DNA of 64,000 bases, from IMG/VR virus record IMGVR_UViG_3300021255_000054, one strand, 5' to 3'. Position numbers and translations under genes: made by a program. Shown here piece after piece: positions 42,838 to 60,066 of this stretch. The notes under the pieces are model-generated. The model did not search any database, had not been told where the DNA came from, and saw nothing but the letters and a program-made list of their open reading frames with translations. The stretch comes from a virus. Lineage: Duplodnaviria > Caudoviricetes. Every line of letters begins with the position of its first letter. The first letter of the stretch is position 1.

Positions 42838-42944
42838 AGGACTTTTTCTTATGTGTTTTTAGATGTTAAACATCCAAAAATGCCTATTGACAAATGATCT
42901 TTATAGATATATAATTGTATCATCAAATGAAGGAGGAACGAGCA

Positions 42945-43631: not shown

Positions 43632-43733
43632 TCCCAGTCTTATTATTTTAGATGTTAAACATCTAATTTATAAGACTTGCGAGACTCTAAAAGGTATGAT
43701 ATAATTAGGTATCAAATGAAGGAGGGATTCGCA

Positions 43734-43898: not shown

Positions 43899-44037
43899 AA
43901 TGAATTGCCCGAAACCGGGCAATTTCATTTTGAATATTTAGATGTTAAACATCTAACTTTATCTCTTGCAATATTCCCGAAAGTATGCTATTATATACTT
44001 GTCCGAAGGGACGAAAGAAAGAAAGGGGATTTGAAAC

Positions 44038-44205
44038 ATGATCGAGTATTATTGGATGCACAAAGAGGACGGTTACATCATTCCCGAAAGTCGGCTTGAA
44101 GATGATTGCTATCTCAACGGCTATGATGATGTGATTGACCCGTGTTCGGTTGAGTACGGCAATTTCAATCTCTATTATGAAAAGACCACCTTGCGCGTAA
44201 AGTAA
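44038..44205 (+). CDS. Cassette small acidic protein (55 aa)
   Basis: Below track cut-off; AAAGGGG RBS; MIEYYWMHKEDGYIIPESRLEDD. Confidence 0.7.
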   Translation: MIEYYWMHKEDGYIIPESRLEDDCYLNGYDDVIDPCSVEYGNFNLYYEKTTLRVK

Positions 44206-44335
44206 AACGCGCGCATCCCGAAAGGGATGCATAAAAGTTAGATGTTAAACATCTAAATTTCCCTATTGACTTTCCTATATAAAGTGATATAATGATATTG
44301 TCCTCAGAGAGAGGATAAGAAAGGAGATTAGCATT

Positions 44336-44572
44336 ATGTGGTTGTTCTATTGTGACAATAGCGGATGGATTCCTATGGGGAACGATGGACAGATGAAAGT
44401 CCCGGCCCGCATCAGCACGCGCAAGCTGCACCAGCTGGCGGAAGCATTGCTCAGCGGACGAGCTGGAAGAATTTACCTTATGACAAGCTGGACCCAGCAG
44501 ATGTCCGAGCTTGGTCCGCGCGCTTTTGAAGAATATATCCAGCGCAATGGAAAAGTAGTGGTTCATTCGTGA
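44336..44572 (+). CDS. Cassette hypothetical protein
   Basis: AAAGGAG RBS; fills the cassette. Confidence 0.75.
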   Translation: MWLFYCDNSGWIPMGNDGQMKVPARISTRKLHQLAEALLSGRAGRIYLMTSWTQQMSELGPRAFEEYIQRNGKVVVHS

Positions 44573-44689
44573 ACCACTATTTCATTTTAAAATATTTAGA
44601 TGTTAAACATCTAAAATAATATGTTGACATTTTCCCGATACTATGCTATTATATAATTGTCCAAAGGGACAGAAAGGATGGTAACTCAA

Positions 44690-44875
44690 ATGGATACTCG
44701 TTATATGATGACTACTACCTATACTGATTTCTCCACCAAATGTGAACGCAGTGATGATTTTTATACACTTATGCGAGCTGCATCTATTTACTGGGAAGAC
44801 CCAAGCTGCGTATATATTCATATTTGGGATAATGCGCTGGAAAAAGATATATTCTCATATGAACAGCCCTGTTAA
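44690..44875 (+). CDS. Cassette hypothetical protein
   Basis: AAAGGA RBS; fills the cassette. Confidence 0.7.
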   Translation: MDTRYMMTTTYTDFSTKCERSDDFYTLMRAASIYWEDPSCVYIHIWDNALEKDIFSYEQPC

Positions 44876-44949
44876 GGGCTTTATTATTTTAGATGTTAAA
44901 CATCTAAATTCATCTCTTGACTTCTCTTATAATATATGATATTATACTA

Positions 44950-45122
44950 CTGTCGAAAGGGGGAAGGGAAGATGATTCCACCGGGTTAGTAGTCCCAAGG
45001 TCACGGGTTGGTACCGGACTGGCGGGATTATATGACGCAACCAACTGCCGCTAACTTGCCGTGGCGAAGCAAGCTGGTGAAATTGAGCCAATTGGCGGAT
45101 TGATCACCCGCCAATTCTTTTA
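44950..45122 (+). ncRNA. Putative structured small RNA cassette (alternative: 43-aa ORF 44972..45103 with TAG-TAG)
   Basis: Promoter and terminator present; GC-rich; CCAC/GTGG, CGGGTTAG/CTAACTTG and AGTCC/GGACT pairings. Confidence 0.45.
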
Positions 45123-45236
45123 TGTAAATAATTAGATGTTAAACATCTAAAACTAACCCTTGACTTCTTCTCTTCTTTATGATATCATATAATTGTTCCA
45201 AGGGGAACGAAATAAATATGAGAGAAGGACACGAAC

Positions 45237-45476
45237 ATGACAATGACGATTGAAAAGAAACTCCGGGACTTCAACTTCTGGGGCGGTGCCGCTACCAACG
45301 CCGCGAAACTGACTCCTGAAGAGCTGGACACACTGGAATATCAGCTGGAAGAAATGATTGGCATTGACGAACCTTGGAGCACCACGGAGGTTAATGACTG
45401 GATGTGGTTCGACTTTGAAAGTATCTGCAACGAGTGGCTTAGAATTGATTATGAAGAAGTAATGGCGAGGACATAA
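45237..45476 (+). CDS. Cassette small acidic protein
   Basis: D/E- and W/F-rich 79 aa; fills the cassette. Confidence 0.8.
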   Translation: MTMTIEKKLRDFNFWGGAATNAAKLTPEELDTLEYQLEEMIGIDEPWSTTEVNDWMWFDFESICNEWLRIDYEEVMART

Positions 45477-45598
45477 TCCTCGCCTTTATTTCATTATAGA
45501 ATTTTAGATGTTAAACATCTAATTTTATAGTTTGACATTCTCCTTAAACTATGCTATTATATACTTGTTCCAAGGGGAACAGAAAGGAAGTATGAGAT

Positions 45599-45820
45599 AT
45601 GCTTAAAGTCACAAAGACATATGCGCGCACATTGTACGATATGGGAAAGCCCGTAATGATTATTCCGAATAAGATGCGCACTGATTCTTTTATGGCGTGC
45701 TGGCAAATAAAGCCGTTTAATGATCCAAACGCCAGCTTTGATAAGCTGGTAAATGCGATTAGCTATTATAATTGTTCTCCCGAAACTGGTTTGGGACTTG
45801 CATATTATACACAGGAATAA
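45599..45820 (+). CDS. Cassette hypothetical protein
   Basis: RBS, promoter and terminator present. Confidence 0.75.
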   Translation: MLKVTKTYARTLYDMGKPVMIIPNKMRTDSFMACWQIKPFNDPNASFDKLVNAISYYNCSPETGLGLAYYTQE

Positions 45821-45942
45821 GGGCCTCGCCCTTATTTCATTTTAAAAAAGTTAGATGTTAAACATCTAATTTATATGATTGACTATTTCCTAATACTATG
45901 TTATAGTGTACTTGTCCAAAGGACAGAAAGGAAGTAAGAGCA

Positions 45943-46413
45943 ATGACAGATGAAGTTATCAAGGCTATGCAAGGCGACAAGAAGAAACACAAGGCGCGCA
46001 AATGGTGGCACAAGAACGGTTACAAGGTCATGCGCGTGATCCTGTTCCCGATCTGGATTGGTAGTATCCTGCTTGAAAAAGGGCGCAAATGGCTCAACAA
46101 TCAGCAGGAATGGAGCGAAGAACGCGCCACCGAAATTCTCAACTACTACATCCCGCGCGCGTCTAAATGGGATGATAAAGACAAGTGTCTTTACTTCTTC
46201 GACAATGGTATGGGCTGGAATTACAAACTTGCAAAGCGGTATCTCAAAAGGAAAGACCGCCGTTTCTGGAAAGTGCATTGCACTTGGTGGGGCGGCAAAA
46301 TGCGTACCCTGTTGATGGAAAAATTCGAGCTTGAAGGATTCACAAAAGAGCTTGGCAACTGTTCCGAAGGTTGGACAGAAATTTCTTTCGTACTGAATGA
46401 GAAAAAAGGTTAA
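45943..46413 (+). CDS. Cassette hypothetical protein (basic, Trp-rich)
   Basis: 156 aa, fills the cassette. Confidence 0.8.
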   Translation: MTDEVIKAMQGDKKKHKARKWWHKNGYKVMRVILFPIWIGSILLEKGRKWLNNQQEWSEERATEILNYYIPRASKWDDKDKCLYFFDNGMGWNYKLAKRYLKRKDRRFWKVHCTWWGGKMRTLLMEKFELEGFTKELGNCSEGWTEISFVLNEKKG

Positions 46414-46567
46414 CAAACCCTTTTTCTGTGGATGATAATTGTTAAGGCGCGCGGGCGCCTTTCTATTTTAGATGTTAAACATCTAACTTTTACCATTGAC
46501 TTTCTTATATAGGTATGATATATTATACTTGTTCCAAGAGAGAAGGAACAGAAAGGAAGTATGCAGT

Positions 46568-46822
46568 ATGACTAGAGTTGGGCCGTATCTGTGGGAAATT
46601 GATGTACAGGATATGAAACTTGAAGAACTTGACGCTCTACAGTCAATCGTCAATGATACGATCAAACAGCGCAGAATGGAACAGTGCTATGAAAAGAAAC
46701 TGCATGACCTGATTGATGAAGCCAAATCCAAGGGCGTATGCTTTAACTATAATGGTCTTTGCACTTGGATTTGTCTTACTGAAACACAGGACAAGATTTA
46801 CGCTTCTCCTGACGGGGATTAA
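46568..46822 (+). CDS. Cassette hypothetical protein
   Basis: AAAGGA RBS, ATG 46568. Confidence 0.75.
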   Translation: MTRVGPYLWEIDVQDMKLEELDALQSIVNDTIKQRRMEQCYEKKLHDLIDEAKSKGVCFNYNGLCTWICLTETQDKIYASPDGD

Positions 46823-46940
46823 TATCCCCAATTTTATTTTATTTTAAAATAAATTAGATGTTAAACATCTAACTTTCTCTGTTGACTTTCCTGTTACTAT
46901 ATGATATACTTACATCATCAAAGAAAGGGAGGCCACCACG

Positions 46941-47246
46941 ATGGAAATGACTTATCACGTAAAGGTTCAGAGGGCAAACCGGGTACAGCATATCATTAAT
47001 GATATCGGTATGGGCCAGATTGTTAAGGAGAAGTTTGTAAACAACTGCTACACCTGTATTACTGATACTGGCATTACCATTATCAAGTCAGCTGACAAGC
47101 TGAAGATTGTAACTATGTATGTTACAACCTACAGAGAGCTGGTAAAGGTTTATGAAGGAACCAAGCGGATTCCTCCGTACCTGAAGAAGCGGGTTGACCG
47201 CAATCAGTCTAAATATACTAATGATGGGAAAACAATTTGGAGGTAA
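46941..47246 (+). CDS. Cassette hypothetical protein
   Basis: GGGAGG RBS. Confidence 0.8.
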   Translation: MEMTYHVKVQRANRVQHIINDIGMGQIVKEKFVNNCYTCITDTGITIIKSADKLKIVTMYVTTYRELVKVYEGTKRIPPYLKKRVDRNQSKYTNDGKTIWR

Positions 47247-47252
47247 GCTGAA

Positions 47253-47585
47253 ATGAAGATCGCAGTTACTCAATGGTATGAATTGACGGATGAACAGGTA
47301 CAAGAGTTAATTAATAATATGTATGAAGACTTAGACTCTGTACCAGCTATGAATTATGTTGAAGAAAGGTTAATGGATTATTGCGCTTCTATGTTCGCAG
47401 ATACTTTTGAAGTTACTAACAGCGATGATGAAGTTGAAGAAATCTACAATGAAGTTAAACGCAGGATTGAAAGCGACGTTAAATTACAGTTAAAGCGTAA
47501 AATTGCAGAACTTGAAAAAGAAATTGCTAAGAGTAGAGAAGAATTGAAAACCGCGCGGGAAAAACTTTTGAGAATGGACGAGTAA
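47253..47585 (+). CDS. Cassette acidic/coiled-coil protein
   Basis: GGAGG RBS; second gene of the cassette. Confidence 0.75.
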   Translation: MKIAVTQWYELTDEQVQELINNMYEDLDSVPAMNYVEERLMDYCASMFADTFEVTNSDDEVEEIYNEVKRRIESDVKLQLKRKIAELEKEIAKSREELKTAREKLLRMDE

Positions 47586-47679
47586 TCGTCCATTATTATA
47601 TTAGATGTTAAACATCTAATTCTAATATTTGACTTAATTTCATTTTTATGATATTATATCTATGCAAGGAGGGGATAAG

Positions 47680-47832
47680 ATGAGTAAGAAACAGAAACCC
47701 ACCCCTAAAACTTGGGTTGAAGTATTTCAAGGAGAACGGAAGGAGTTTCCACAGGGATATTGCGTCACTCGTATTATCCCAGACAAGCGCAAGAAAGCAC
47801 CAAAACATAAGGAAAGGGAGTTTGATGACTGA
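47680..47832 (+). CDS. Small basic protein (50 aa)
   Basis: AAGGAGG RBS; first of a four-gene cassette. Confidence 0.65.
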   Translation: MSKKQKPTPKTWVEVFQGERKEFPQGYCVTRIIPDKRKKAPKHKEREFDD

Positions 47833-47999
47833 TGCCTTGGTGGTGGGATGTTCGTAATGTAATCAATAATAAGTTGATTCGCTTTCTGTTAAATCGTTGT
47901 GTGATTGATAGTTGCACCCTTCGTAAAATTGTTTATAAAGTATCTAATTATGAATTACAGCCAATTATGGACGAGAAGGAAAAGGAGTTTGACGAATGA
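47832..47999 (+). CDS. Small protein (55 aa)
   Basis: TGATG coupling; GGGAG RBS. Confidence 0.55.
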   Translation: MPWWWDVRNVINNKLIRFLLNRCVIDSCTLRKIVYKVSNYELQPIMDEKEKEFDE

Positions 48000-48157
48000 A
48001 ATATAAATGGGTTATCATGCAGGAACTTGAGGATAGTGGTTGCGCGAATCCTTATTTGATTGTAGATACCGAAAAGCGCGCCGAAGAACTATGCTATAAG
48101 TTAGAATCCGAAAACCCGGGCTTTATCTTCTGGTCTTATATGTGTAAGGAGGAATAA
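47996..48157 (+). CDS. Small protein (53 aa)
   Basis: ATGA coupling; AAGGAG RBS. Confidence 0.65.
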   Translation: MKYKWVIMQELEDSGCANPYLIVDTEKRAEELCYKLESENPGFIFWSYMCKEE

Positions 48158-48158
48158 T

Positions 48159-48368
48159 ATGAATATTGTTACTCGTACCTATTACATCCCCCGTAACCAG
48201 ATTGGGCGCTATGTAATGAATTATATTGTTGAAAAGGTTGGTTGCTCTGTCGGTGAATTTAAGTTGAATCGTCAGGCCGAAACTATTCGTTTCTCTATCA
48301 CTTGCAAAATTAACGATGTACCTACCGTTGAAAAGATTTTGCGGCTTTATGATATGTTAGGGGAGTAA
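48159..48368 (+). CDS. Cassette hypothetical protein
   Basis: AAGGAGG RBS. Confidence 0.7.
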   Translation: MNIVTRTYYIPRNQIGRYVMNYIVEKVGCSVGEFKLNRQAETIRFSITCKINDVPTVEKILRLYDMLGE

Positions 48369-48445
48369 TTTCCCCTTCAAATAATTAGATGTTAAACATC
48401 TAAAACAAAGCGTTGACTTTTCCCGAAATTTGAGTATAATAATAA

Positions 48446-48526
48446 TTGTTCCGAGGGACGGAAGGCGATGGAACACCGTGGCAAGTGCCGGCTTACCCAC
48501 AACTTGCGCACCGCCCCTCGAACAAA
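48446..48526 (+). ncRNA. Putative small hairpin RNA
   Basis: Follows TTGACT-16-TATAAT; ends pair (TTGTTCCGAGGGACGG / CCGCCCCTCGAACAA); no ORF. Confidence 0.45.
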
Positions 48527-48654
48527 AAATTTTCAGACTAATACTTGACTTTCAAGTAGAAATCTGATATAATGAAGATGTTCCAAGGGAACAAAAATAA
48601 AATTGTGCAGGGCGGTCTGCCGTAAACTAAACCGCAGAGAAAAAGGAGTAAATT

Positions 48655-49146
48655 ATGAAGACTGCTGAAATTATTTCTAAGATCATGGAAATCCCCGGTG
48701 CTACTATGGGTCGTGCGAACAAGACCAACTTTATCGTTGTTCCTACTGAGGACGGTTACAGCAAGGTTAGCGTGACTGCCGCTCTGGCTAAGGACACCAA
48801 GAACCACAGCGCTTTCAATTATGAAGCCGCTGTTGCCGAGTACAAGGCTTGGGAAGCCGAAGCCGCTCTCCGCGCCGCTGAACGTGCTAACAAGCCCGTT
48901 AAGGTCAAGGGCCCCAACCCCGAAGCCGAAGCTCGCCGTCAGGCTCTTGATGCCGCCATCACCGCTCTTCCTTCCTTCACGAATGCTACTGCGACCGATG
49001 TGTTTAATATGTTTGCCGAGGGTGAACAGCCCAAGACCGTTATGCTTGTCGGTTCTGCTCTTAAGCGTCTTGTCGAAGCGGGCGTTGTAGTTGCTACCAA
49101 GTCCGAGGACGCCAAGGACAAGAAGACCTATTACACTAAGGCGTAA
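48655..49146 (+). CDS. Putative DNA-binding protein with C-terminal winged helix
   Basis: ATATDVF..VGSALKRLVEAGVV..KKTYY; strongly biased codon usage. Confidence 0.65.
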   Translation: MKTAEIISKIMEIPGATMGRANKTNFIVVPTEDGYSKVSVTAALAKDTKNHSAFNYEAAVAEYKAWEAEAALRAAERANKPVKVKGPNPEAEARRQALDAAITALPSFTNATATDVFNMFAEGEQPKTVMLVGSALKRLVEAGVVVATKSEDAKDKKTYYTKA

Positions 49147-49297
49147 TTCCCAGCCCCTAACGGGGCTTTTCTTTTTGGGATTCTTTTTAGATGTTAAACA
49201 TCTAACTTATTGTATTGCAATTTCATTTTAAATATGATATTATACTTATGTAAACGAAAGGAGAAGGATACTCCCTAAAACCAGAAAGGAAAATGTT

Positions 49298-49585
49298 ATG
49301 AAGATTTGGACAGTTGAAGAATATATTGTTCTAGATGAGATTAGTTACTGCGTTAGTCAATTTTATGGTCATTGGGAATTTTCTACCAAAGAAAAAGCAA
49401 TTCAAGCAGTATATAATCATCTGCGCGAACTTAATATTGACGAAGAAGACATTAAAAATCATATTAAAGAATGGGATGAAGATGATGAACTACATCATAT
49501 GAGAACTAAATTTGATAACTATGATATGTATGATTGCCGTTATGATATTCGGATGATCGAACTTGATCAGAAAATCGAAATTTAA
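49298..49585 (+). CDS. Cassette acidic protein
   Basis: AAACCAGAAAGGA leader. Confidence 0.75.
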   Translation: MKIWTVEEYIVLDEISYCVSQFYGHWEFSTKEKAIQAVYNHLRELNIDEEDIKNHIKEWDEDDELHHMRTKFDNYDMYDCRYDIRMIELDQKIEI

Positions 49586-49725
49586 GGGCTTTGCGCCCTT
49601 TTCATATTTAGATGTTAAACATCTAATTTCATTTTAAAATTGCCTATTGACTTTCCTATTACTCTATGATATACTTATTCCAGAAAGTGAAGGAAAACAC
49701 TTAGAAACCAGAAAGGGATTGACTG

Positions 49726-50172
49726 ATGACGATTTGGTTTGATATGGATGGAACTATTGCGAACCTGTACGGCGTTGACGGTTGGCTTGATATGCTTCGA
49801 GCTTATGACCCGAAGCCCTACGCAGAAGCTGAAGTTATGCTGAATATGAGTGTGCTTGCGCGATATCTGCATAAGGCACAGCGAGCTGGAATCTCTATCG
49901 GGATTATCAGCTGGCTCAGCCGCTCCTCTACCCCTGAATATGATGAAGCTGTTGAAGAAACTAAGCTGGGCTGGCTTGCTGAACATCTCCCCTCTGTAGA
50001 TTGGGATGAAATCAACATTGTCGATTATGGTACCGATAAGTCCATCTTTATGAATAGTGATGAAGATATTCTGTTCGATGATGAACCCAAGAACCGTGAA
50101 AACTGGGATGGACTCGCTTTCACTCCCGATGAGATTATGGAAGTCTTGAAGGGACTGACGAAAGGGCGGTAA
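49726..50172 (+). CDS. HAD-superfamily phosphatase (5'(3')-deoxyribonucleotidase-like)
   Basis: FDMDGTIANL motif I, IIS motif II, K, ILFDD motif IV. Confidence 0.8.
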   Translation: MTIWFDMDGTIANLYGVDGWLDMLRAYDPKPYAEAEVMLNMSVLARYLHKAQRAGISIGIISWLSRSSTPEYDEAVEETKLGWLAEHLPSVDWDEINIVDYGTDKSIFMNSDEDILFDDEPKNRENWDGLAFTPDEIMEVLKGLTKGR

Positions 50173-50293
50173 GCCCTTTTTATTATAATTAGATGTTAAA
50201 CATCTAATTATATTCGTTGACAATTTTATTTCAATTTGATATACTACTTATGAAAGTTGAAGGAAAACAACTCAAACCGGAAAGGGTACTCGT

Positions 50294-51052
50294 ATGTATG
50301 TAATGATCTTTGATACTGAAACTACCGGACTGGACAAGCCTTTCTGTTATGATGTAGGCTATTTTATCGTCGATACTGATAGGCATTTTACTGCAGAACA
50401 GCGGCATTTCGTTATTGAACAGGTTTGGCACAATCTGCCGCTTTTTGAATCTGCGTACTATAAAGACAAGCGTCCGCAGTATGTCCAGCTTATGCGCAAA
50501 CGTCTTGCCATTATGGACAAATGGGGTTACGTTATGCAACAGATTAAGCGCGATCTGCGTAAGTATAATGTAACTGACGCTTATGCTTACAATTCTGATT
50601 TTGATGACAAAGTGTTCGCTTTCAACTGTGATTGGTTTAAATGCAATAATCCTCTTGAAGATATCGCAATTCACGATATTTGGGGCTATGCCAGTCAGTA
50701 TATCACAAATACTCCCGAATATAGGGCTTTCTGTGAAACACATAGTTTCTTTACTGATACGGGTAACTACAAGGCCAGTGCAGAAATTGTCTATCGGTAT
50801 CTTTCCGGTGTAGTGGATTTTGAAGAAAAGCATATGGGGCTTTATGACGTAGGGATTGAAGCGTTTATTCTTGATGAATGTATTCAACTTGGAGCAGAAT
50901 GGAATCTTGACTATAAGGTCAACCGCATTCTCCCCAGACAGATTGAAAAACCTTTTCAGATTTTCGTAGACGGCGAATGTATTGTATCGGACAATTATAT
51001 TAAGAAATATGTTCGTAACGATGTATACAAATTCACTACGGCCCAGTCCTAA
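50294..51052 (+). CDS. DEDDh 3'-5' exonuclease
   Basis: FDTETTG, AYNSDFD, HMGLYD. Confidence 0.85.
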   Translation: MYVMIFDTETTGLDKPFCYDVGYFIVDTDRHFTAEQRHFVIEQVWHNLPLFESAYYKDKRPQYVQLMRKRLAIMDKWGYVMQQIKRDLRKYNVTDAYAYNSDFDDKVFAFNCDWFKCNNPLEDIAIHDIWGYASQYITNTPEYRAFCETHSFFTDTGNYKASAEIVYRYLSGVVDFEEKHMGLYDVGIEAFILDECIQLGAEWNLDYKVNRILPRQIEKPFQIFVDGECIVSDNYIKKYVRNDVYKFTTAQS

Positions 51053-51307
51053 AACTGGGCCTTTCTTTCTTAGATGTTAAACATCTAAAACAAGTAATTG
51101 ACTTTTCCTAAAATTGTGATATACTTATAACTGTCAAGAGGAGATGCGAGGTAGAGAAAATGAGAAGCGCGCCTCTGAGTTCGAGAGACAAGGGCAAAAG
51201 AAATTCAAAAGAATTTCAAAAAACCTCTTGACAACTTCCCAAACTTATGATATACTTAATACGAAAACAGGGGAAGGAAAACCCCACAAACCAGAAAGGA
51301 TACTATT

Positions 51308-51646
51308 ATGAAGAAGACTTCTATGGAAAGACTCGTTGGTTACATCAATGACAATGCCGTTACTGACCTGTTTGATATTCGTGATGAGATGACGGCCGAA
51401 CTCAAGAAGAACAAGGATAAGGCGGACGCTAACCGCGCCCTGTATGAGGAAGCGCACGATATCGTGATCGACGCTATCCCGACCGAAACTCCCGTCACCG
51501 TTGCCGAACTGTTTGAAGCGATTGAGTCCGAACTGCCGGAAGGCTTCACCAAGGCTAAGGTGAATTACGCTCTTACCCATTACTGGGAAGAGGATGTGAA
51601 TAAGATTCCCGGTAAGGTTAACTCCTATACCCGTAAGGTGAGCTAA
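51308..51646 (+). CDS. Putative winged-helix DNA-binding protein
   Basis: PVTVAELFEAI..KAKVNYAL..GKVNSY; paralogue of 55523..55852. Confidence 0.65.
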   Translation: MKKTSMERLVGYINDNAVTDLFDIRDEMTAELKKNKDKADANRALYEEAHDIVIDAIPTETPVTVAELFEAIESELPEGFTKAKVNYALTHYWEEDVNKIPGKVNSYTRKVS

Positions 51647-51803
51647 TGCTCACCTTTTTCTTTTACAAGGAATTAGATGTTAAACATCTAAAATTGTATA
51701 CAGTATTCTTTTAAAAAAATGCTTGACAATTTTTCAAATTTATAGTATACTTATTCCAGAAACGGAGAAGGAAAACTCCACAAACCAGAGAGGAGCAATG
51801 CTT

Positions 51804-52214
51804 ATGAATAAGGCACAGCTTGAAACCGCTATTCGCAATGACTTTCTTGATTCTATTATGAAGTATATCTCTGAATCCCGTGAAACTGATGTGCTCCCTG
51901 TTAGCGCAAACGAACTTGCCGTTCCTTGTCTGGATGCTGAGGGCAACGAAAAGTGGGTTCTGATTAAGGTTTCTATTCCTCGTGGTAGCCGTAACGGCGA
52001 AGGCGGATACGAACCTTATGATGGTTATTCTGTCGCAGAAGATTACCAGTTTGACCTTGCTGATAAGGCAAAAAAGAAACGTGTAGCGGAAGAACAGAAA
52101 GCCAAGAAAATCGCGGCTGATGAAAAGAAGCGTGCGGAAAAGAAAGCGCTTGCCGAAGCGAATAAGAATCTGAAAGAACTCCGTAAGATTAAGGTTACTC
52201 CCGAAAGGGAGTAA
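51804..52214 (+). CDS. Hypothetical protein with Lys/Ala-rich tail
   Basis: Paralogue of 52342..52722 (DAEGNEKWV vs DLNGIERYV). Confidence 0.75.
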   Translation: MNKAQLETAIRNDFLDSIMKYISESRETDVLPVSANELAVPCLDAEGNEKWVLIKVSIPRGSRNGEGGYEPYDGYSVAEDYQFDLADKAKKKRVAEEQKAKKIAADEKKRAEKKALAEANKNLKELRKIKVTPERE

Positions 52215-52341
52215 CCCAATTTCATCCCGAGTTATTAGATGTTAAACATCTAATTATTCTATGTTGACATTTCCCAATATCTATGCTATACTATCCACGA
52301 AAGGTGAAGGAAAACACCAGAAAACCAGAAAGGAAATTGAA

Positions 52342-52722
52342 ATGCCTAAGATTTCTAAGACTGTTGTTGACAAGGCTCTGCGTGATGGTATTTTCTTTGA
52401 TATGTTCCAGAATGATTGTGGAATGTATGACTATGTAAAAATCAATGACCGCCAGTATGGCACTATCATTACCGATTTGAACGGCATTGAACGCTATGTG
52501 CGCATTGGCGCGATTGTCGCAGAAGAACGTGAGGATATGACTGCGCGCGAACTTATGCAGAAGGAAATTGATGAGTATAAGGCCAAGCAGGCGGAAAAGG
52601 CCGAAAAGGCTAAGAAGAAGGAAGAAAAGATTGCCAAGGATAAGGCCAAGCGCCAGAAGGAACAGGAACAGGAAGAAGAAGATGACCCTAACCAGTTTCT
52701 TCCTAATGAAGTGACGGTTTAA
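52342..52722 (+). CDS. Hypothetical protein with Lys/Glu-rich tail
   Basis: AAACCAGAAAGGA leader, ATG 52342. Confidence 0.75.
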   Translation: MPKISKTVVDKALRDGIFFDMFQNDCGMYDYVKINDRQYGTIITDLNGIERYVRIGAIVAEEREDMTARELMQKEIDEYKAKQAEKAEKAKKKEEKIAKDKAKRQKEQEQEEEDDPNQFLPNEVTV

Positions 52723-52740
52723 TAGAAAGGAATGATAATA

Positions 52741-53010
52741 ATGTTGAAAGTCACAACCTATCCTCACATTGAAGATTCTGAAATTGCTCGTCTGTGCGGT
52801 GAAGATGTAGCCGAACATATGTCTCTTCACTATGAAGCCAAAAATGGTACAAGTGAAAGCTTTTGTGTTCTGACAGAAGAAGAAATCAAAGAACTTGAAG
52901 AAGATGAAGATGATTGGTTTGATGAAAAATGGAAACTTGGCCTGACTAAAATGTTACTGGAAAATGGCTTCAAGCACGGCGATAGAGTATATATTGATTT
53001 CTTTTGGTAA
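52741..53010 (+). CDS. Acidic hypothetical protein
   Basis: GAAAGG RBS. Confidence 0.7.
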   Translation: MLKVTTYPHIEDSEIARLCGEDVAEHMSLHYEAKNGTSESFCVLTEEEIKELEEDEDDWFDEKWKLGLTKMLLENGFKHGDRVYIDFFW

Positions 53011-53027
53011 GAGTGGAGGAAAAGAAA

Positions 53028-53219
53028 ATGCCTGATGAAAAATGCCCCAATTGCTTATCGGGAGAATATGATGTTGATAATTACTGGGATGATTTTGATG
53101 AAGACGGTGGTATCAGAGTATGGGAATGTATTTGTTCCTCCTGTCATAAAAAATTTGATATCACATATGAATATAAATGCATCAAAACAACAGTTGAAAT
53201 AGAGGTTAGCGCAAGCTAA
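53028..53219 (+). CDS. Small Zn-ribbon protein
   Basis: CPNC..CSSC; GGAGG RBS. Confidence 0.7.
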   Translation: MPDEKCPNCLSGEYDVDNYWDDFDEDGGIRVWECICSSCHKKFDITYEYKCIKTTVEIEVSAS

Positions 53220-53354
53220 CCTCTTTCTTTATATATTAGATGTTAAACATCTAATTCTTTCCCTTGCAATTTCCCTATAACTATGGTATTATATCATTGT
53301 TCCAAGGGGAACACGAAAGAGGAAGGATACCTCACAAACCAGAAAGGTTACTAT

Positions 53355-54341
53355 ATGCGCAAAGAACTCCGTTATATGGTTTTGGACACTGAGACCGCCA
53401 CTCTTCCCTTTGCTAATGAAATTGCCCAGAATAATCCTGAGAAGAAGAAAAAAATTGCTATCGCTCGCCCTCTTGTGTATGATATTGGTTGGACTATCAC
53501 CAACCGCAAGGGCGAGATTTTGGATAAGAAGCAGTTTCTGATTGCCGAAACTTTTGCCGTTCCCGCCGTGTTCAATACTGCATATTATGCAGAAAAGCGG
53601 CCGCTCTATCTGGAAATGTTGAAAGAGAACAAGACCTCTATCAAGCCGTGGGGCGAAGTGATGGAACTCTTTGTTGAAGATCTTCAGCAGGTCGATGCCG
53701 TTGGGGCATACAATGCAATGTTTGACTTCAAGAAAGCAATTCCCTTTACTGAACTGTACATTAACAAACTGTACAGCCCTGATTATCAGAATTGGGAGTT
53801 CCTTCAGCGCAAGATGTGTACTAAGATTGCTAACGAGAAGTATCAGAAGAAGGAAGAAAAAGAATTTGATGGTGATTTCTTCACCTTCCGTGGCAAGTCT
53901 TATCCTCTGTTTGACCTTTGGGGACTTGCGACCAAGCACCTTTTGAATAACGCCACTTATAAGAAACAGTGCCTTGACCATAATCTTTTAACCGCAAGCG
54001 GAACATTCTTCAAGACTAGCGCCGAATCTTCTTTTCAATATCTATGCGACCGCTATGATTTTGAAGAAAGTCACACCGCACTTGATGACGCTATGATTGA
54101 AACCCATATTCTTTCTTGTGTAGCCAAGAAGCACGCTATCTCTACTGGAATTACTTTCTTCCCCTTCCGTGAATTGGGTACTACTACTGAATTTGTAATG
54201 CGTAGGAAAACTCCTCACATTAATGAAGTAATGGTAGTATATGAAGCAATCATAGCATATATTGAAACCAAGGAAGAATCTCGGTACGTGGTTGGATTGC
54301 GTAATATGTTGAAAGAATTGGAAGAATATATGGCGGGATAA
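53355..54341 (+). CDS. DEDDh 3'-5' exonuclease (second paralogue)
   Basis: LDTETAT, AYNAMFD, HTALDDA; shares AYY..KR..Y and DxWG with 50294. Confidence 0.85.
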   Translation: MRKELRYMVLDTETATLPFANEIAQNNPEKKKKIAIARPLVYDIGWTITNRKGEILDKKQFLIAETFAVPAVFNTAYYAEKRPLYLEMLKENKTSIKPWGEVMELFVEDLQQVDAVGAYNAMFDFKKAIPFTELYINKLYSPDYQNWEFLQRKMCTKIANEKYQKKEEKEFDGDFFTFRGKSYPLFDLWGLATKHLLNNATYKKQCLDHNLLTASGTFFKTSAESSFQYLCDRYDFEESHTALDDAMIETHILSCVAKKHAISTGITFFPFRELGTTTEFVMRRKTPHINEVMVVYEAIIAYIETKEESRYVVGLRNMLKELEEYMAG

Positions 54342-54473
54342 CCGCCATATTTCATTTCAGATTATTAGATGTTAAACATCTAAAAAGAAATATTGACTTT
54401 CTCCTAAAATTGAGTATAATATAATCATCAGGTGAAGGAAAACACCGAAACACCAGAAAGGAAGTTTAAAACT

Positions 54474-54683
54474 ATGAAGAAGCCGATTACCGTTCGTGTC
54501 AAGAAAACACTGACTTTTGATGAAACTGACGTGTGTAGCATCGCCAAAGATATGTCATATACTTTCTGGAACTCAGGATATTTTGAAGACATTGAACCCA
54601 GCGATATTGATGATGAAGATTTCGCAGGTCTGGTTCGCGCCATCGCCGATGAGTTTCAGAAAATTGTGGAGGAAGATAAATAA
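54474..54683 (+). CDS. Small acidic protein
   Basis: CCAGAAAGGA leader. Confidence 0.7.
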   Translation: MKKPITVRVKKTLTFDETDVCSIAKDMSYTFWNSGYFEDIEPSDIDDEDFAGLVRAIADEFQKIVEEDK

Positions 54684-54786
54684 TATGGAAATTAATGTGC
54701 GTGCGAAACATATATTCAATGAGGACTAATAGTCCTCTTTTTTATTTATAATAATTAGATGTTAAACATCTAATAAAAAATGGCGC

Positions 54787-55050
54787 TTATCGCGCCAACT
54801 TCAGAATCCGTTTGAACCAACTAACTTTCTCTTCGTAAATAGGTTCAACAGTAATTTCATAGATAATCTTATGCTTTTCTCTATCCATCAAATACAGACG
54901 AGGACTTCCCATATAATACCATACAGTTTTTCCTCTCTCGTGAACAAAATCCAAAATAGCTTTATCAGGAATATGTCTATCAAATTCCTGACCGCCATAC
55001 ATAATATCCAAACCATCTTTCTTAGGGATATACACAAGGCGCTTTTTCAT
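54787..55050 (-). CDS. Hypothetical protein (inverted cassette)
   Basis: TAATG coupling with 55050..55205; terminator at 54775-54797. Confidence 0.7.
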   Translation of the reverse strand: MKKRLVYIPKKDGLDIMYGGQEFDRHIPDKAILDFVHERGKTVWYYMGSPRLYLMDREKHKIIYEITVEPIYEEKVSWFKRILKLAR

Positions 55051-55205
55051 TATCCAATCACCACCTGAATTTCCATATTCTCTCCACACTTATACTGAAT
55101 CAAATCATTAGCCCGCTTTTCCGCTTCTTCCATAGTATTAAAAACTTCATTGACCTCAACAAAATAACCAAGGGGCCAGCACGTACCAGTCAGACGATAC
55201 TTCAT
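55050..55205 (-). CDS. Small protein (51 aa, inverted cassette)
   Basis: Minus-strand TTGACT-16-TATAAT at 55237-55264; GGGAG RBS. Confidence 0.65.
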   Translation of the reverse strand: MKYRLTGTCWPLGYFVEVNEVFNTMEEAEKRANDLIQYKCGENMEIQVVIG

Positions 55206-55522
55206 TCCATCATCGCTCCCTTCATTTGATAATTACATTATACTCAGATTTTCCTAAAAGTCAACTACCATTATTAGATGTTAAACATCTAACTATTAGT
55301 GGTTGACTTTTCTCTAATTTGTGATATACTTATAACTGTCAGAGGGAGAACGGGAGCGGAAACAAATCTCCTTGGAAACAGAAGACCCGATGTTTCTCTT
55401 GACCGAAAATAAAAGGGAGAAAATTTTCGGAAACCTCTTGACAAGCTTCCAAAACTGTGGTACAATAACCACGAAAGATGAAGGGAAGGAAAACCCTAAA
55501 AACCAGAAAGGAAATGAAACCT

Positions 55523-55852
55523 ATGAAAAAGACTACTATGACCGCCATCGTTACCGCTCTGACTGCTATCGACTCTGAGAAGTATTCCGACCTGATCGCC
55601 GAAGTTAATGCCGAACTGAACAAGGGCGCGGAGCAGAAGCAGAAGAATGCCGATGCCTATGAGTCCATCCACGATCTGGTTGTTGGCAATCTGGGCGATG
55701 CTCCTTGCACCTGCGCCGAACTGTATGAAGCCATCAAGGATGAACTGCCTGATGGTATGGGCAAGGGCAAGGTTCAGTATGCTCTGACTCACCTGTGGCA
55801 GGATGAGATTGTGAAGATTGAGGGTAAGCCGAATACCTATCGGAGGGCGTAA
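55523..55852 (+). CDS. Putative winged-helix DNA-binding protein
   Basis: PCTCAELYEAI..KGKVQYALTH..GKPNTY; paralogue of 51308. Confidence 0.65.
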   Translation: MKKTTMTAIVTALTAIDSEKYSDLIAEVNAELNKGAEQKQKNADAYESIHDLVVGNLGDAPCTCAELYEAIKDELPDGMGKGKVQYALTHLWQDEIVKIEGKPNTYRRA

Positions 55853-55861
55853 GCCCTCCAC

Positions 55862-56208
55862 GGGTTGTGCGGTAAGACATCGGCTCGCACAGATACGTAG
55901 AACATCGGTGGATTAAGCGTATCAACCACGAGGAGATTTCTGAAGGTTTACAGTGTGGCTAAACAACTAAAGCCTTCCCACGAGGGTTTCCAAGGGCTTT
56001 CAGTGTGGTTAAACAACATAAGCCCTTTTATATGGCGATGGAGGGACACGGCCTACCCCACAGTTAGCAAGTTCGACTCTTGCCGTTGCCACGACTTACC
56101 TAGTGGCAGAAGCCCTATCCACTTAAAAACGTGGGCGGATGAAGTAGACCATCAAAGCAACTACAGTGAGGGCGCTTACCCCACAACCGCCTTCGGGCGG
56201 TATTTTTA
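55862..56208 (+). ncRNA. Putative ~340-nt structured RNA with tRNA-like domain
   Basis: Closing stem GGTTGTGCGGTAAG/CTTACCCCACAACC; twin hairpins; acceptor-like stem GGCGATG/CGTTGCC with T-arm GCAAG-TTCGACT-CTTGC (56034-56091); terminator ACCGCC-TTCG-GGCGGT. Confidence 0.55.
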
Positions 56209-56311
56209 TTTTCAATTATTAGATGTTAAACATCTAATTAAAGGTATTGCAATTTTCCTATAATATGATATAATAGCATTGTTCCAAGAGGAACGGAAAG
56301 GATGAAGTAAA

Positions 56312-56515
56312 ATGGAAAAACCTATTCGCAAATTTCAGTACATCAATGCATATGGTATCAAGAAACAACTTAATGTATATGAAATGGTCAATAATAAGTA
56401 TCCAGTAGAACTGTGGGCAACTAGATATGGGGAATATTGTGGGTCAGGTGAAATGACGAAACAAGAACTTAACGATTATTTAGAGCACTTTGGTATTACG
56501 GAAAGGATGGAATAA
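56312..56515 (+). CDS. Cassette hypothetical protein
   Basis: AAAGGA RBS. Confidence 0.7.
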   Translation: MEKPIRKFQYINAYGIKKQLNVYEMVNNKYPVELWATRYGEYCGSGEMTKQELNDYLEHFGITERME

Positions 56516-56516
56516 A

Positions 56517-56759
56517 ATGAAAATTTATGAAGTTATCGAGTATGTAGATAATGCAGAAAATGCTTTTGGCTACTATTCTTCTCTTGAAAAGGCACAGCAG
56601 GGAATTTTGACACGAGTAAAAGATGCTTATACAGATGAAGAGATGAAAGCTTTTCATTTTGATGAAGATGGATATGGCTATTCGACCACAGAAAATGAAT
56701 GGGTAGCCGCTTGTGATTATGTAATCTTTGAACACGAATTGGATAAGGAGATGGAGTAA
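56517..56759 (+). CDS. Acidic hypothetical protein
   Basis: AAAGGA RBS; ATG 56517. Confidence 0.7.
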   Translation: MKIYEVIEYVDNAENAFGYYSSLEKAQQGILTRVKDAYTDEEMKAFHFDEDGYGYSTTENEWVAACDYVIFEHELDKEME

Positions 56760-56760
56760 A

Positions 56761-57015
56761 ATGCAGACAATTAAAAACTGGTTCGGCATTGAAACTTCCT
56801 ATAAGTTTGAATGGAATGACCTTCGTTGCGGCATTACTATCTTGAATGTAGTTCTGATTATGCTCTTTGGCTTGCAGGTATCTTGGTTCGGGCTTGCAAT
56901 CGCGCTCTTTGGTGTGTGTAAAGACCTCTCCCAGCATCGGCATATCAATGATATTCTTATGCACTTGTCTAGTGTAGTATTGAATGTATACTTCCTTTCC
57001 CTTCTGTATAGGTAG
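56761..57015 (+). CDS. Small membrane protein ending in TAG
   Basis: Three hydrophobic segments; TAG 57013-57015 lies in a terminator-like hairpin. Confidence 0.7.
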   Translation: MQTIKNWFGIETSYKFEWNDLRCGITILNVVLIMLFGLQVSWFGLAIALFGVCKDLSQHRHINDILMHLSSVVLNVYFLSLLYR

Positions 57016-57127
57016 GCAATGCCTATCTTCCATACTTAGATGTTAAACATCTAAAAGTTTCTCTTGCATTTTTTCCAAAGTATGATATAATTATATCGTT
57101 CCAAGGGAACAGAAAGGATGATTGAGA

Positions 57128-57403
57128 ATGCGTGAACTATATGAAAAATACTACACTATCAGATTGTGGTTTCAGCCCGATGACCGTGTGACCCCAGACA
57201 TCATTGACCTTGAAGGCGAGTATGATTCTGAAGAAGAAGCAATAGTATTCGCGCGAGAACACATTCCTCTTACTTTTGGATGGGAACATATTATTGTTCC
57301 TCATTATCGAAAACTTTCAAATTTAAAGTTGACAAATACTCCTAATGGTGATATAATGATGATGATCTCGAAAGGAAAGGAAAGGAGTAATGAGAGTGAA
57401 TAA
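57128..57403 (+). CDS. Cassette hypothetical protein
   Basis: AAAGGA RBS; 3' end overlaps internal promoter 57329-57357. Confidence 0.6.
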   Translation: MRELYEKYYTIRLWFQPDDRVTPDIIDLEGEYDSEEEAIVFAREHIPLTFGWEHIIVPHYRKLSNLKLTNTPNGDIMMMISKGKERSNESE

Positions 57404-57560
57404 CATCATTCCGATTGATTCTGAGGAAAAGGAACTTTGTTGTTTGTGTATATTAGGTCTTGTGCTTTATGATTATATGACACCTTCGGCAAGACAATTA
57501 TATGATACTCTTACTGAAGAAGACAAGCAAGAGATTAAGAAAAAATTTATAAAAGGATAA
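57390..57560 (+). CDS. Small protein (56 aa)
   Basis: AAAGGAG RBS; own TTGACA-17-TATAAT promoter. Confidence 0.55.
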   Translation: MRVNNIIPIDSEEKELCCLCILGLVLYDYMTPSARQLYDTLTEEDKQEIKKKFIKG

Positions 57561-57648
57561 TGAGTATGAAGTATCAGTACTACAAGGGAGAGTAAAACTC
57601 TCCCTTTTATTTTTAGATGTTAAACATCTAAATAAAAAAGTATGCACA

Positions 57649-58197
57649 TTAGTGCATACAATTCGTGAAATTACAGTAGCCAGCCGAACAAGCATAATCT
57701 ACAACTACTCCCTTTCCCTTATACATACCCACATTCCAAGCGTGCAGGTCACACATATATTTCTTCAGGAAAGCCCGTTCATCATCATCCCAACCATACT
57801 CCATTTCAGCATAATCATAGTTCCCAACATGATTGACTTTCCGCATAGCATAATAATACTTTCCGTCAATCATAAAGCGGTACATAGGCGCGAGAAGATA
57901 GGAATAAGGAGTCCGACTCAGCTTCTGGTAAACTTTATATTCCTGTTCGCATCCACCAATACGGCCGCAAGCCTTATCATCATAATCTATCTTAATCACA
58001 TAGTCCGGCCCAATCAGGCAGATACGCGCGCTCCCATAATCCATCTCAATATGGCGATGATATTCCATATTAAAGGACTCTACTCCTTCTTCTACATAGC
58101 CACGGCGATCATATTTATTCATTATATCAAAATCAGGAATATATTGCGCAAACTGCTTCATAAACTTTTCAGCCCGAATCTGCCAAGGATTAGCCAT
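57649..58197 (-). CDS. Protein kinase-like fold enzyme
   Basis: YGSARI (P-loop), YVIKI, E helix, DLHAWNVG catalytic loop, VVDY. Confidence 0.75.
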   Translation of the reverse strand: MANPWQIRAEKFMKQFAQYIPDFDIMNKYDRRGYVEEGVESFNMEYHRHIEMDYGSARICLIGPDYVIKIDYDDKACGRIGGCEQEYKVYQKLSRTPYSYLLAPMYRFMIDGKYYYAMRKVNHVGNYDYAEMEYGWDDDERAFLKKYMCDLHAWNVGMYKGKGVVVDYACSAGYCNFTNCMH

Positions 58198-58307
58198 CTC
58201 TCAAACACCCCTTTCTTGATTACGGGATAAGTATATCATAAGTTAAGAAAAGAGTCAATAGGATATTTTAGATGTTTAACATCTAACTTACTGAGGGGCT
58301 TTCGCCC

Positions 58308-58751
58308 TCAGTCGATAATATCTTCAACAGGAACATTATACCATTCCTTAATCCGTTTATACAACATCCGTTTAGTACCACCAAACATCCAACTATCCTC
58401 AGTTTCTACTAACTGATTAGTATCAAACAAAACAATATCAAGCACATCACTATAATAGCCATTCTGCTCATTGTAACACGGCACGAAGAAAGACCGCTGT
58501 CCGCATAACCTAATTCCTGCTCTCCTTCTCCACGCTACTTCTTCAATTCGCAAATCAGAAAAATCTGTATCCATCAATCCGGCTTCATCTTTAATATAAT
58601 CCCAATTAGCATATACATTCTCACAGCAATCCTGACTATGAGTATCGATCAGAAGCCACCCATTATCAAATAAAATACCACCATTGGCATCAAATGAAGT
58701 CTTACTCAGAATCTCATCACCATCATAAACAAACCGCGCAATCTTAACCAT
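58308..58751 (-). CDS. Hypothetical protein
   Basis: HSQDCCENVY and YNEQNGYYS motifs; own promoter and leader. Confidence 0.75.
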   Translation of the reverse strand: MVKIARFVYDGDEILSKTSFDANGGILFDNGWLLIDTHSQDCCENVYANWDYIKDEAGLMDTDFSDLRIEEVAWRRRAGIRLCGQRSFFVPCYNEQNGYYSDVLDIVLFDTNQLVETEDSWMFGGTKRMLYKRIKEWYNVPVEDIID

Positions 58752-58868
58752 AACTTACTCCCTTCTGGTTTCTAAGGTATCCTTCCTTTTATGTATGTAT
58801 TATATAATAAAGTAATAGAAAAGTCAATAAGGAATTTTAGATGTTAAACATCTAACTTCTCAAGACCG

Positions 58869-59273
58869 TCAAACGGTCTTGCAATAGAAACACCATTTAA
58901 TATCAAAAATATATTTCAATTCAAATCCTTCTGATTCAAGCAGATGCCGCATTCCCGCATTATCATCCCACGGAGTTGCCCCAACATTACCGTGTACAAT
59001 TTTAGTAATTTCTTGTAGAGCATATCGAGCGATACCTTTACCTTGATTTTTCTTATTACAAATACATAATCTTTTAATAGCGGTATAATTATATTGCGGT
59101 TCGGGTACAAGCGAAACAGTCGCCAATACTTTCTCGTTATCCGCAACAACATACAGCCGCCGCTGTCTATAATCCAAGTCCACTTGTGCCGGAGTAAGAT
59201 ACGTAAGATGCTTATATCTTAAAGCATTAATAACTTTCATTAAATCTTTATGTGTTGCTAATCTCAATTCCAT
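58869..59273 (-). CDS. GNAT-family acetyltransferase
   Basis: IKRLCI..NQGKGIA acetyl-CoA motif; N..MRHLLESEGF. Confidence 0.82.
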   Translation of the reverse strand: MELRLATHKDLMKVINALRYKHLTYLTPAQVDLDYRQRRLYVVADNEKVLATVSLVPEPQYNYTAIKRLCICNKKNQGKGIARYALQEITKIVHGNVGATPWDDNAGMRHLLESEGFELKYIFDIKWCFYCKTV

Positions 59274-59373
59274 ACCATACGCTCCCTTCAGGTGATAGCT
59301 ATATTATAGCATGAATAGGAGAAAAGTCAAGCGACATTTTTAGATGTATTACATCTAAATTTATAAAGAAGGC

Positions 59374-59988
59374 TCACGCCTTCTTCTCTGCAATTATTTT
59401 AAATATAGCCGGATTACTAAATGCTTCACATAATTTATAATAAGCAGTTTCATTTACATAAAACCATTCATTAGCTCTCTGAGCTTTAGCATAAGCATAT
59501 TTTTCTAAATATTGATGGCAAAAACGTTCTGCTCTATCCGACTTTGTAGTTTCATAATATCCACCAATATATAGCATAGGATTATATGTAGCATAAGAAG
59601 ATACACGAGAATAAAGATTCTTCGCTCTTCCAACCTTAACCAAATAATATTTCTCGCCAGCGGGATTGATTCCAATCATTCCAAGAAAGTACACTCCCTC
59701 TGTACAAGGCAGCTCATCTGTTTTGGCACAATTGATTTCTAATGTAGGAATTTCATCTTTTAATGTTTCATCTTTTTTATGCACTCCCGCTTTATCATAT
59801 ACATAATGAAATTCTAAGCCATATCTGGCATTTGCACTCAAAGGGGAACGAAAATCATGATAAATACATTCCAATGTAGCTTCAGAAATATTTCCATCTT
59901 CATCTGAAAAGAACTCAACCATATTATTCCAGTGATATGTAGCAATACGTTCTTCAATTTCCTGTTCATATTTATACATTCTTTCCAT
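59374..59988 (-). CDS. GIY-YIG superfamily (T5orf172-like) protein
   Basis: GVYFL..VKVGRAKNLYSRV..AERFCH..NEWF. Confidence 0.7.
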   Translation of the reverse strand: MERMYKYEQEIEERIATYHWNNMVEFFSDEDGNISEATLECIYHDFRSPLSANARYGLEFHYVYDKAGVHKKDETLKDEIPTLEINCAKTDELPCTEGVYFLGMIGINPAGEKYYLVKVGRAKNLYSRVSSYATYNPMLYIGGYYETTKSDRAERFCHQYLEKYAYAKAQRANEWFYVNETAYYKLCEAFSNPAIFKIIAEKKA

Positions 59989-60066
59989 TCTCCCTTCACT
60001 TCATGAGTACATTATATCAGAAATTTATGAAAAGTCAATAATATAAATTAGATGTTATACATCTAA

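Follow-up and report, generated by a model that had tools for sequence, protein, structure and literature searches.

The PeSLs of T4-type phages are modules of a promoter and a stem-loop that mediate the shuffling of gene cassettes (Arbiol et al. 2010, PMC2839356; Comeau et al. 2014, PMC4122927). Cluster O mycobacteriophages carry 17-bp dyad repeats of unknown function (TGTTCGG-N3-CCGAACA), and a separate 17-bp direct repeat flanks gene 14 of Corndog and is single in its relatives, which represents a comparable gene indel delimited by a repeat (Cresawn et al. 2015, PMC4351075). The stoperators of L5-type (Cluster A) phages are asymmetric 13-mers distributed genome-wide, which are bound in an orientation-dependent manner by monomers of the immunity repressor of these temperate phages (PMC9283540). 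The temperate Bacillus phage SPbeta possesses approximately 10 SPBRE sites bound by the recombinase-fold repressor MrpR, and these were predicted in silico decades before their binder was found (PMC10516654). Here, we describe a 19-base palindrome, hereafter the box, that stands at the cassette borders of an early-gene array in a large rumen virus of the Caudoviricetes (IMG/VR record IMGVR_UViG_3300021255_000054). The window analyzed is a stretch of 64,000 nucleotides (nt) that corresponds to bases 49718–113717 of this record of 189,572 bp and 35.6% G+C, which has direct terminal repeats and was rated 100% complete. The box is a demonstrated site of cassette exchange between relatives. It is probably a regulator-binding site that doubles as the cassette crossover site, its promoter-less copies being by-products of insertion in either orientation.

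Like the PeSLs, this locus consists of modules of a terminator and a strong host-type early promoter that border small, mostly ORFan genes in a hyperplastic region, and recombination between modules led to cassette indels and replacements between relatives. PeSLs, however, have no separate perfect palindrome, and their homology is the promoter and stem-loop itself, whereas here a distinct 19-bp dyad box lies between the terminator and the promoter and is phase-locked to the -35 element. The symmetry of the box permits insertion in either orientation and leaves copies at promoter-less junctions, and its carriers belong to another phage group, which is TAG-recoded and has Firmicute-type promoters. 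The resemblance to the Cluster O repeats is in form only (over 30 copies in each genome, arms that do not vary, a free 3-bp center, and a position that is mostly intergenic), with no sequence relation; those repeats are spread over the genome at no fixed distance from promoters, while the box is located in one early array, 9 nt from the -35 element and once per border. The L5 stoperators and the box have in common that a single site recurs more than 20 times, both at promoters and between genes where no promoter lies. The box, which is here inferred to be protein-bound, is however symmetric, indifferent to orientation, and restricted to the early array of a phage with no integrase. The SPBRE are likewise conserved repeats, found in many early-gene promoter regions of a large phage of Firmicutes, though they are not a cassette joint, and no tyrosine-recombinase-like protein was detectable here. 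The Hin/Gin invertase and integron attC/IntI systems differ in that no cognate serine or tyrosine recombinase and no same-context flip among 601 cassettes were found here, and the KorB/ParB operator-centromere systems in that no PF02195 protein is present. Unlike the PeSLs, Cluster O repeats, stoperators, and SPBRE, the present element is a separate, invariant dyad box that is phased to the -35 element, marks each border once, and doubles as a joint indifferent to orientation.

The box has an 8-3-8 layout, TTAGATGT-N3-ACATCTAA, in which N3 is A/T-rich. The 19-mer TTAGATGTTAAACATCTAA and its close variants were found at 35 sites in the window (0.09 expected by chance), 27 of them perfect and the others with 1–3 mismatches. 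All of these copies were confined to window 41485–60066, with none elsewhere in the 189,572-bp genome. The exact 19-mer was detected in 56 stretches of approximately 25 related IMG/VR contigs of up to 175 kb, so that the window and its relatives (about 580 copies) gave 614 copies in total. The box was the only sequence common to every cassette border, and its motif was not found in the literature searched. The leftmost six copies (window 41485–43303) included five weakened or variant boxes (TTGGATG...CATCCAA, ...CATCCAA), which possibly form an affinity gradient at the array end adjoining the late genes. In the genome_contigs collection of 596 billion bases, the 16-base box pattern occurred in 118 stretches, which is about the chance level, and multi-copy matches were obtained only in three short contigs of metagenome-assembled genomes (MAGs) that resemble binned phage pieces. 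A host regulon was hence rejected as an explanation of the box. The three contigs (L073, L104, and L135) come from MAGs assigned to Acutalibacteraceae, Oscillospiraceae, and Bacillota; they are probably fragments of phages, and hint weakly at a host within Oscillospirales.

When the copies were aligned in register, a stereotyped module emerged, composed of an intrinsic terminator, 4–19 nt, the palindrome, 8–10 nt, a -35 element (TTGACA/T), 16–17 nt, and an extended -10 element (TRTGnTATAAT). The latter is often followed by a 5'-terminal hairpin, and then by a strong Shine-Dalgarno sequence and 1–4 small genes. The combination of terminator, box, and TTGACA-17-TRTGnTATAAT was present at nearly every array border. 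Box and -35 element were 9 nt apart for 432 copies, 8 nt for 54, and 10 nt for 26 in the window and relatives (94% together), and nearly all remaining copies belonged to minor classes of 17–21 nt and 28–31 nt, which correspond to about one and two further helical turns. The filler in these longer classes was a UP-like A-tract or a second palindrome (TTGTATACAGTATACA). The hairpin-to-box distance was loose (4–19 nt, median 8, interquartile range 7–15). Assuming the usual promoter geometry, the box center would be located near -54, -64, or -74. The fixed spacing to the -35 element that had been described for this segment in the initial annotation is hence real, and it holds family-wide.

The same annotation had stated that each boundary carries exactly one palindrome, which was borne out across the family. 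Eighty-three percent of the 614 copies flanked exactly one promoter, while 26 stood between two terminators and 18 between two promoters. For a junction test that is independent of the palindrome, every switch of promoter direction within the arrays was taken. Convergent promoter pairs (n = 41) contained one box in 26 cases, two in 2, and none in 13; the 13 box-less pairs were all less than 410 nt apart, which is too close for two converging genes and thus marks them as spurious promoter hits. Divergent pairs (n = 30) had one common box in 26 cases and 2–3 boxes in the other 4, which contain undetected promoters in between. Twenty-nine convergent junctions had a box with a hairpin on either side and no promoter, and 28 of these boxes had perfect arms. 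Some convergent junctions persisted between relatives with both flanks orthologous at 86–91% identity. One qualification is that not every promoter has a copy, since promoters without a box exist inside cassettes (window 51228, 55438, and 57329).

The segment on which these observations are most easily followed contains both exceptional kinds of junction. Its features, together with the array to which they belong, are as follows (window coordinates).

41485..60066, no strand: the whole array, with 35 box copies delimiting approximately 34 early-gene cassettes in the standard code.
54721..54737, plus strand: intrinsic terminator of the rightward cassette 54384–54754 (own script and an independent scanner).
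54755..54773, no strand: box copy at a convergent junction, with a terminator on either side and no promoter (motif, terminator, and promoter scans).
54774..55273, minus strand: inverted ORFan cassette, with promoter 55264–55237, genes 55050–55205 and 54787–55089, and terminator 54797–54781.
54781..54797, minus strand: intrinsic terminator of the inverted cassette (own script and an independent scanner).
55274..55292, no strand: box copy at a divergent junction, common to a leftward and a rightward promoter.
55303..55330, plus strand: palindrome-linked promoter P1 of the cassette 55293–56218 (TTGACT-16-TATACT with TG).
55438..55466, plus strand: internal promoter P2 without a palindrome (TTGACA-17-TACAAT with TG).
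55523..55852, plus strand: PF0 gene for a 109-residue winged-helix protein (as predicted), with a paralogue at 51308–51646.
55862..56208, plus strand: non-coding stretch with twin hairpins that ends in the terminator 56186–56201, a candidate structured RNA.
56219..56237, no strand: box copy of the standard type (terminator, palindrome, 9 nt, promoter 56247–56274).
57036..57054, no strand: box copy of the standard type, with promoter 57064–57091 (TTGCAT-16-TATAAT with TG).
57584..57606, plus strand: intrinsic terminator closing the rightward part of the array.
57613..57631, no strand: box copy at the second convergent junction, with a terminator on either side and no promoter.
57632..58267, minus strand: PF8 cassette, with the gene 57649–58197 (phrog_4301).
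57640..57659, minus strand: intrinsic terminator of the leftward PF8 cassette.
58268..60066, minus strand: leftward cassettes, with box copies at 58268, 58837, 59340, and 60048, each 9 nt upstream of a -35 element.
58869–59273, minus strand: GNAT gene in the leftward cassettes.
59374–59979, minus strand: gene of a T5orf172 protein in the leftward cassettes.

The cassettes of the array run rightward except for 54774–55273 and the block 57632–60047, so that both orientations are present, as had been proposed from the segment itself. At the divergent junction, the copy at 55274 was confirmed to be common to two promoters, the leftward -35 element lying at 55264–55259 (9 nt away) and the rightward one at 55303–55308 (10 nt away). 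The copies at 54755 and 57613 were placed between facing terminators both by our own script and by the independent scanner. No sigma-A promoter occupies the canonical place at either copy, and the only nearby matches were 9/12 background hits that occur at the frequency of shuffled sequence; cryptic promoters, which would have counted against the initial annotation, were not found there. When a segment is placed or inverted between two symmetric boxes, one terminator-box-terminator junction and one promoter-box-promoter junction must result. The pair 54755/55274 matches exactly this expectation, and 57613 fits the same logic. Since the protein encoded at 54787–55089 has no relative in IMG/VR, the inversion of its cassette cannot be polarized.

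The same rule was observed with an unrelated box. A distant relative, L183 (L183:1-10345, Logan SRR12711452; also L186), has a sister array with a dyad box of about 30 bp (GTTAAnTT..GCCGGC..AnTTAAC) located 10–11 nt upstream of the -35 element. Its single leftward gene has one box between two terminators and one common to two promoters. This indicates that conservation extends to the architecture, whereas each clade has a box sequence of its own, which is how a co-evolving pair of regulator and operator would look.

The conservation of the box fits a protein-binding site. At promoter-anchored windows, the arms (16 positions) exhibited a bimodal distribution: 410 were perfect, 30 had 1–2 changes, 2 had 3–4 changes, and otherwise the site was absent. 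The arms were 97–100% conserved and the central triplet was variable, while the genes of the same phages were only 65–78% identical at the DNA level. The flanks contributed at most one extra symmetric base and nothing asymmetric, and the central base, read in the promoter direction, was A in 291 copies, T in 180, C in 25, and G in 15. The preferred central triplet is specific to the genome (TAA in 90% of the window copies, TCA in 74% of those of another genome, and ATT in a third), which is a signature of exchange among the copies within a genome, i.e., concerted evolution. On contig 3300028888_000066, position 5/15 was A or G in each arm nearly independently, giving 12 double, 11 hybrid, and 14 canonical copies. 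This indicates that the half-sites are read separately, as by a dimer, which is opposite to what base-pairing predicts. A purely structural reading of the site (hairpin or cruciform) was rejected on these hybrid arms. The same 8-3-8 palindrome (TTAGATGT-N3-ACATCTAA) was also located before a small HTH_DeoR gene in about 14 species of the Bacillaceae (L081:667-1042 and about 14 other Neobacillus, Bacillus, and Priestia loci, L077-L134), directly downstream of the -10 element and a CodY-box-like AATTTTCAGAAATT. It shows the palindrome to be an ordinary kind of operator, and is probably an autoregulated host operator unrelated to the phage. The HTH_DeoR protein itself was rejected as the phage binder, as it has no homologue in the phage.

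Crossovers inside the box were shown by comparison of relatives. Two phages that are approximately 97% identical (3300001485_000145 and 3300021400_000239) differ by one cassette of 590 nt, and junction 1871 of the former joins the sequence to the left of junction 3135 (98%) with that to the right of junction 3744 (96%), both in the latter. Junction 1871 keeps the central triplet of junction 3135, which places the exchange within the right 8-bp arm. Including this case, seven independent exact cassette indels or replacements were identified, in which the box was the only real homology and the parental flanks were otherwise unrelated; the six further events include a five-cassette block and one replacement. 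More generally, 31% of the ends of high-identity blocks fell in the box or within 5 nt of it, compared with 5.9% for random positions, an approximately 5-fold enrichment. The PF8 cassette (window 57632–58267) was found in at least 8 neighborhoods, always between two boxes, and was inverted relative to both neighbors in 3 of them, so that the orientation variation among relatives that was looked for is present. No triple X-Y-Z with only the cassette Y flipped was found among 601 cassettes on 24 contigs, nor was any clean inversion joint found between close relatives, which showed only indels and replacements. Changes of orientation thus always accompanied changes of position, which argues for insertion or relocation in either orientation rather than for an invertible switch.

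The genes that flank the array differ from it in their code. In-frame TAG codons were found in a terminase-like gene (window 36228–38006, nine codons), in a sigma-factor-like gene of 434 amino acids (38912–40216, four codons), and to the right of the array (60842–62100 and also 62815–63100), and another flanking gene has 11. The array genes use the standard code with no in-frame TAG, and only 1 of 39 has TAG as its stop. This indicates that the array is the early region, read by the host polymerase, of a phage that is TAG-recoded in its late genes and keeps the standard code in its early genes. The promoters and ribosome-binding sites of the array are of the Firmicute type. No match was obtained when window 54000–58000 was compared with deposited phages by blastn, or when the window was scanned with Rfam and for tRNAs.

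We infer from these features that the box is bound by a sequence-specific protein of two-fold symmetry, a putative dimer that is probably phage-encoded. This protein would act on the host sigma-A RNA polymerase at approximately 35 early promoters, from a site centered at about -54, or displaced upstream by one or two helical turns where the gap is filled by an A-tract (UP-like) or by a second operator. As a guess, we lean by very little toward early-gene shut-off over activation, which could proceed through contact with, or exclusion of, the C-terminal domain of the polymerase alpha subunit (alpha-CTD). The phi29 protein p4 acts on the alpha-CTD in that way at strong promoters. Because the box is common to all borders and reads alike on both strands, it is also a crossover point for either orientation. 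Cassettes would be deleted, inserted, replaced, and re-inserted at it, most likely by the general recombination of the phage acting on 8–19 bp of identity; a Sak4/AAA_24 recombinase is encoded (E = 5e-47), and RecA, RecT, and Erf are absent from the genome. In this view, shuffling at the box would leave the promoter-less copies as topological by-products, kept perfect by continual exchange between copies, by a secondary role (roadblock or cooperative binding), or by both.

Several points weigh against this explanation. The promoters are already near-consensus, so that an activator seems unnecessary, and a center at -54 is unlike the position of a simple steric repressor; the sign and the mechanism of regulation are consequently guesses. 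A homology of 8–19 bp is short for ordinary homologous recombination, and survivorship bias could inflate the apparent precision of the crossovers if only box-preserving rearrangements are viable. The promoter-less copies are as well kept as the others, the 19-mer being perfect in 15 of 26 compared with 353 of 511 promoter-linked copies, and no true convergent junction without a box was present in the arrays examined. Such upkeep may reflect a function of their own, which we have treated here as secondary. Finally, no box-binding protein was identified among the candidates examined. The Xre helix-turn-helix protein (G000, 23.1 kb) was rejected because it is missing from a complete box-bearing relative. 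PF0, the most abundant family of the array (window 51308–51646 and 55523–55852), has a predicted winged-helix fold (predicted local distance difference test score of 93.7) that is suggestive of DNA binding, but variation in its recognition helix does not follow that of the box; its homodimer prediction score of 0.11 is no evidence either way on such a role. The Xre gene belongs to one of two paralogous three-gene modules (G000:C1:23100-23900, L057, and 117600-118400, L058), each comprising Xre helix-turn-helix, DUF5659, and winged-helix (HTH_36-like) genes, and one of the modules contains a TAG codon.

Of the alternatives, a roadblock or silencer similar to a stoperator survives best, and we regard it as unlikely. 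In this explanation, a bound protein stops or insulates transcription at the borders and cooperatively silences the 18-kb early arm, recombination is incidental, and the copies between facing terminators are fully functional. It accounts well for a box after nearly every terminator and never missing at convergent junctions, for the perfect arms of promoter-less copies, and for the convergent junctions that persist with flanks of 86–91% identity, and it has a precedent in the L5-type repressors, which bind over 20 sites, some at promoters and others in intergenic spaces that lack one (PMC9283540). It does not account for a spacing that is loose to the terminators but fixed to the -35 element and stepped by helical turns, or for divergent junctions whose box has nothing to block. 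Moreover, a lysogenic silencer is not expected in a phage that has no integrase and looks virulent, and crossovers inside the box are not explained by roadblocking alone.

A joint explanation can also be considered, though as a whole we hold it to be quite unlikely. Here, each clade of these large rumen phages would have its own dyad box and a matching putative binder, which would control all early promoters from one set helical position and would also synapse boxes in pairs, allowing cassettes to be excised and put back in either orientation. The cassettes would be integron-like but recombinase-independent, the operator serving as the attachment site through 8–19 bp of identity, and the promoter-less copies would be functional attachment and roadblock sites rather than relics.

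Also quite unlikely is a dedicated site-specific system, in which the palindrome is the core site of a specialized enzyme (an integron- or Hin-like recombinase or invertase) for the excision, insertion, and inversion of cassettes, its association with promoters coming second. Crossovers within 19 bp, and once within an 8-bp arm, are what it predicts, as are cassettes in both orientations and a central spacer homogenized within genomes, and one cassette contains a T5orf172/GIY-YIG-like gene. That cassette, however, is not universal in the family, no inversion polymorphism was found in situ, and neither the 9-nt phasing nor the +10 and +20 classes are predicted. Furthermore, the 100% complete genome gave no match to PF00239 (serine recombinase) or PF00589 (tyrosine recombinase), for which control genomes were matched, nor to the ParB/KorB N-terminal domain PF02195. 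The proposal in the initial annotation of a symmetric recombination site is therefore retained for cassette exchange inside the box and for the enrichment of breakpoints around it, and is set aside for a dedicated or invertible system; its two-part idea of a symmetric joint with a transcriptional role was broadly right, and overall the annotation was partly supported.

A DNA cruciform or RNA hairpin, such as a back-up terminator or a processing site, has hardly any chance of being the explanation, since the perfect dyad symmetry, the 3-nt center that varies like a loop, and the position directly after terminator U-tracts are outweighed by mispairing hybrid copies as common as symmetric ones on 3300028888_000066, by a location after the terminator and before the promoter that is rarely transcribed, by the weakness expected from sequence of an A/U-rich stem with a 3-nt loop, and by the phasing with the -35 element, which a structure does not predict.

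The array and its surroundings contain further elements. The stretch of approximately 350 nt between the PF0 gene and its terminator (window 55862–56208) has two near-identical hairpins with a fold z-score of -2.45 and no Rfam match. PF3 (window 46941–47246) is the most conserved protein of the array (63–80% identity across the family), and its confidently predicted fold weakly resembles RNase toxins of the CdiA-CT, colicin D, and RelE types, which makes it a candidate host-takeover nuclease. PF2, PF4, and PF6 had no sequence relatives in the PDB, and an Atlas search with them was uninformative. A conserved hairpin (GTTCCAAGGGGAAC or GTCCAAAGGGAC) directly follows the -10 element in many cassettes (e.g., window 45560–45580, 53300–53315, and 56282–56296); lying where the mRNA is predicted to begin, it may act as a 5' stabilizer of early transcripts. 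A second palindrome, TTGTATACAGTAT(A/T)C, lies at window 51693–51710 between the main box and the -35 element of the PF2 cassette (gene 51798–52214). It is kept in the orthologous cassettes of three relatives (L049:~727, L047:~2385, and L032:~5493), occurs also in the repeat region at 60.4 kb, and is possibly the operator of another factor. Directly to the right of the last box, window 60070–60480 is a dense non-coding repeat region with about nine AGCTGGAA units, TATCCAG/ATACTGGATAC repeats, and TGTATACA palindromes in an inverted arrangement, and may be an origin of replication or a control region. Near 60492 there is an isolated right half-site, AACATCTAA.

In large phage genomes, no part is more variable or less understood than the early host-takeover regions. 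The present array provides a case at base resolution, across approximately 25 genomes, in which one short symmetric box is probably the common control point of about 35 promoters and is also the joint where genes are exchanged, relocated, and flipped. What results is a concrete rule, namely one box per border located 9 nt from the -35 element, and a testable account of the boxes that have no promoter. The binder, if found, would offer a handle on the timing of early genes in rumen phages with TAG recoding, and phage engineering would gain a portable site for cassette exchange in either orientation.

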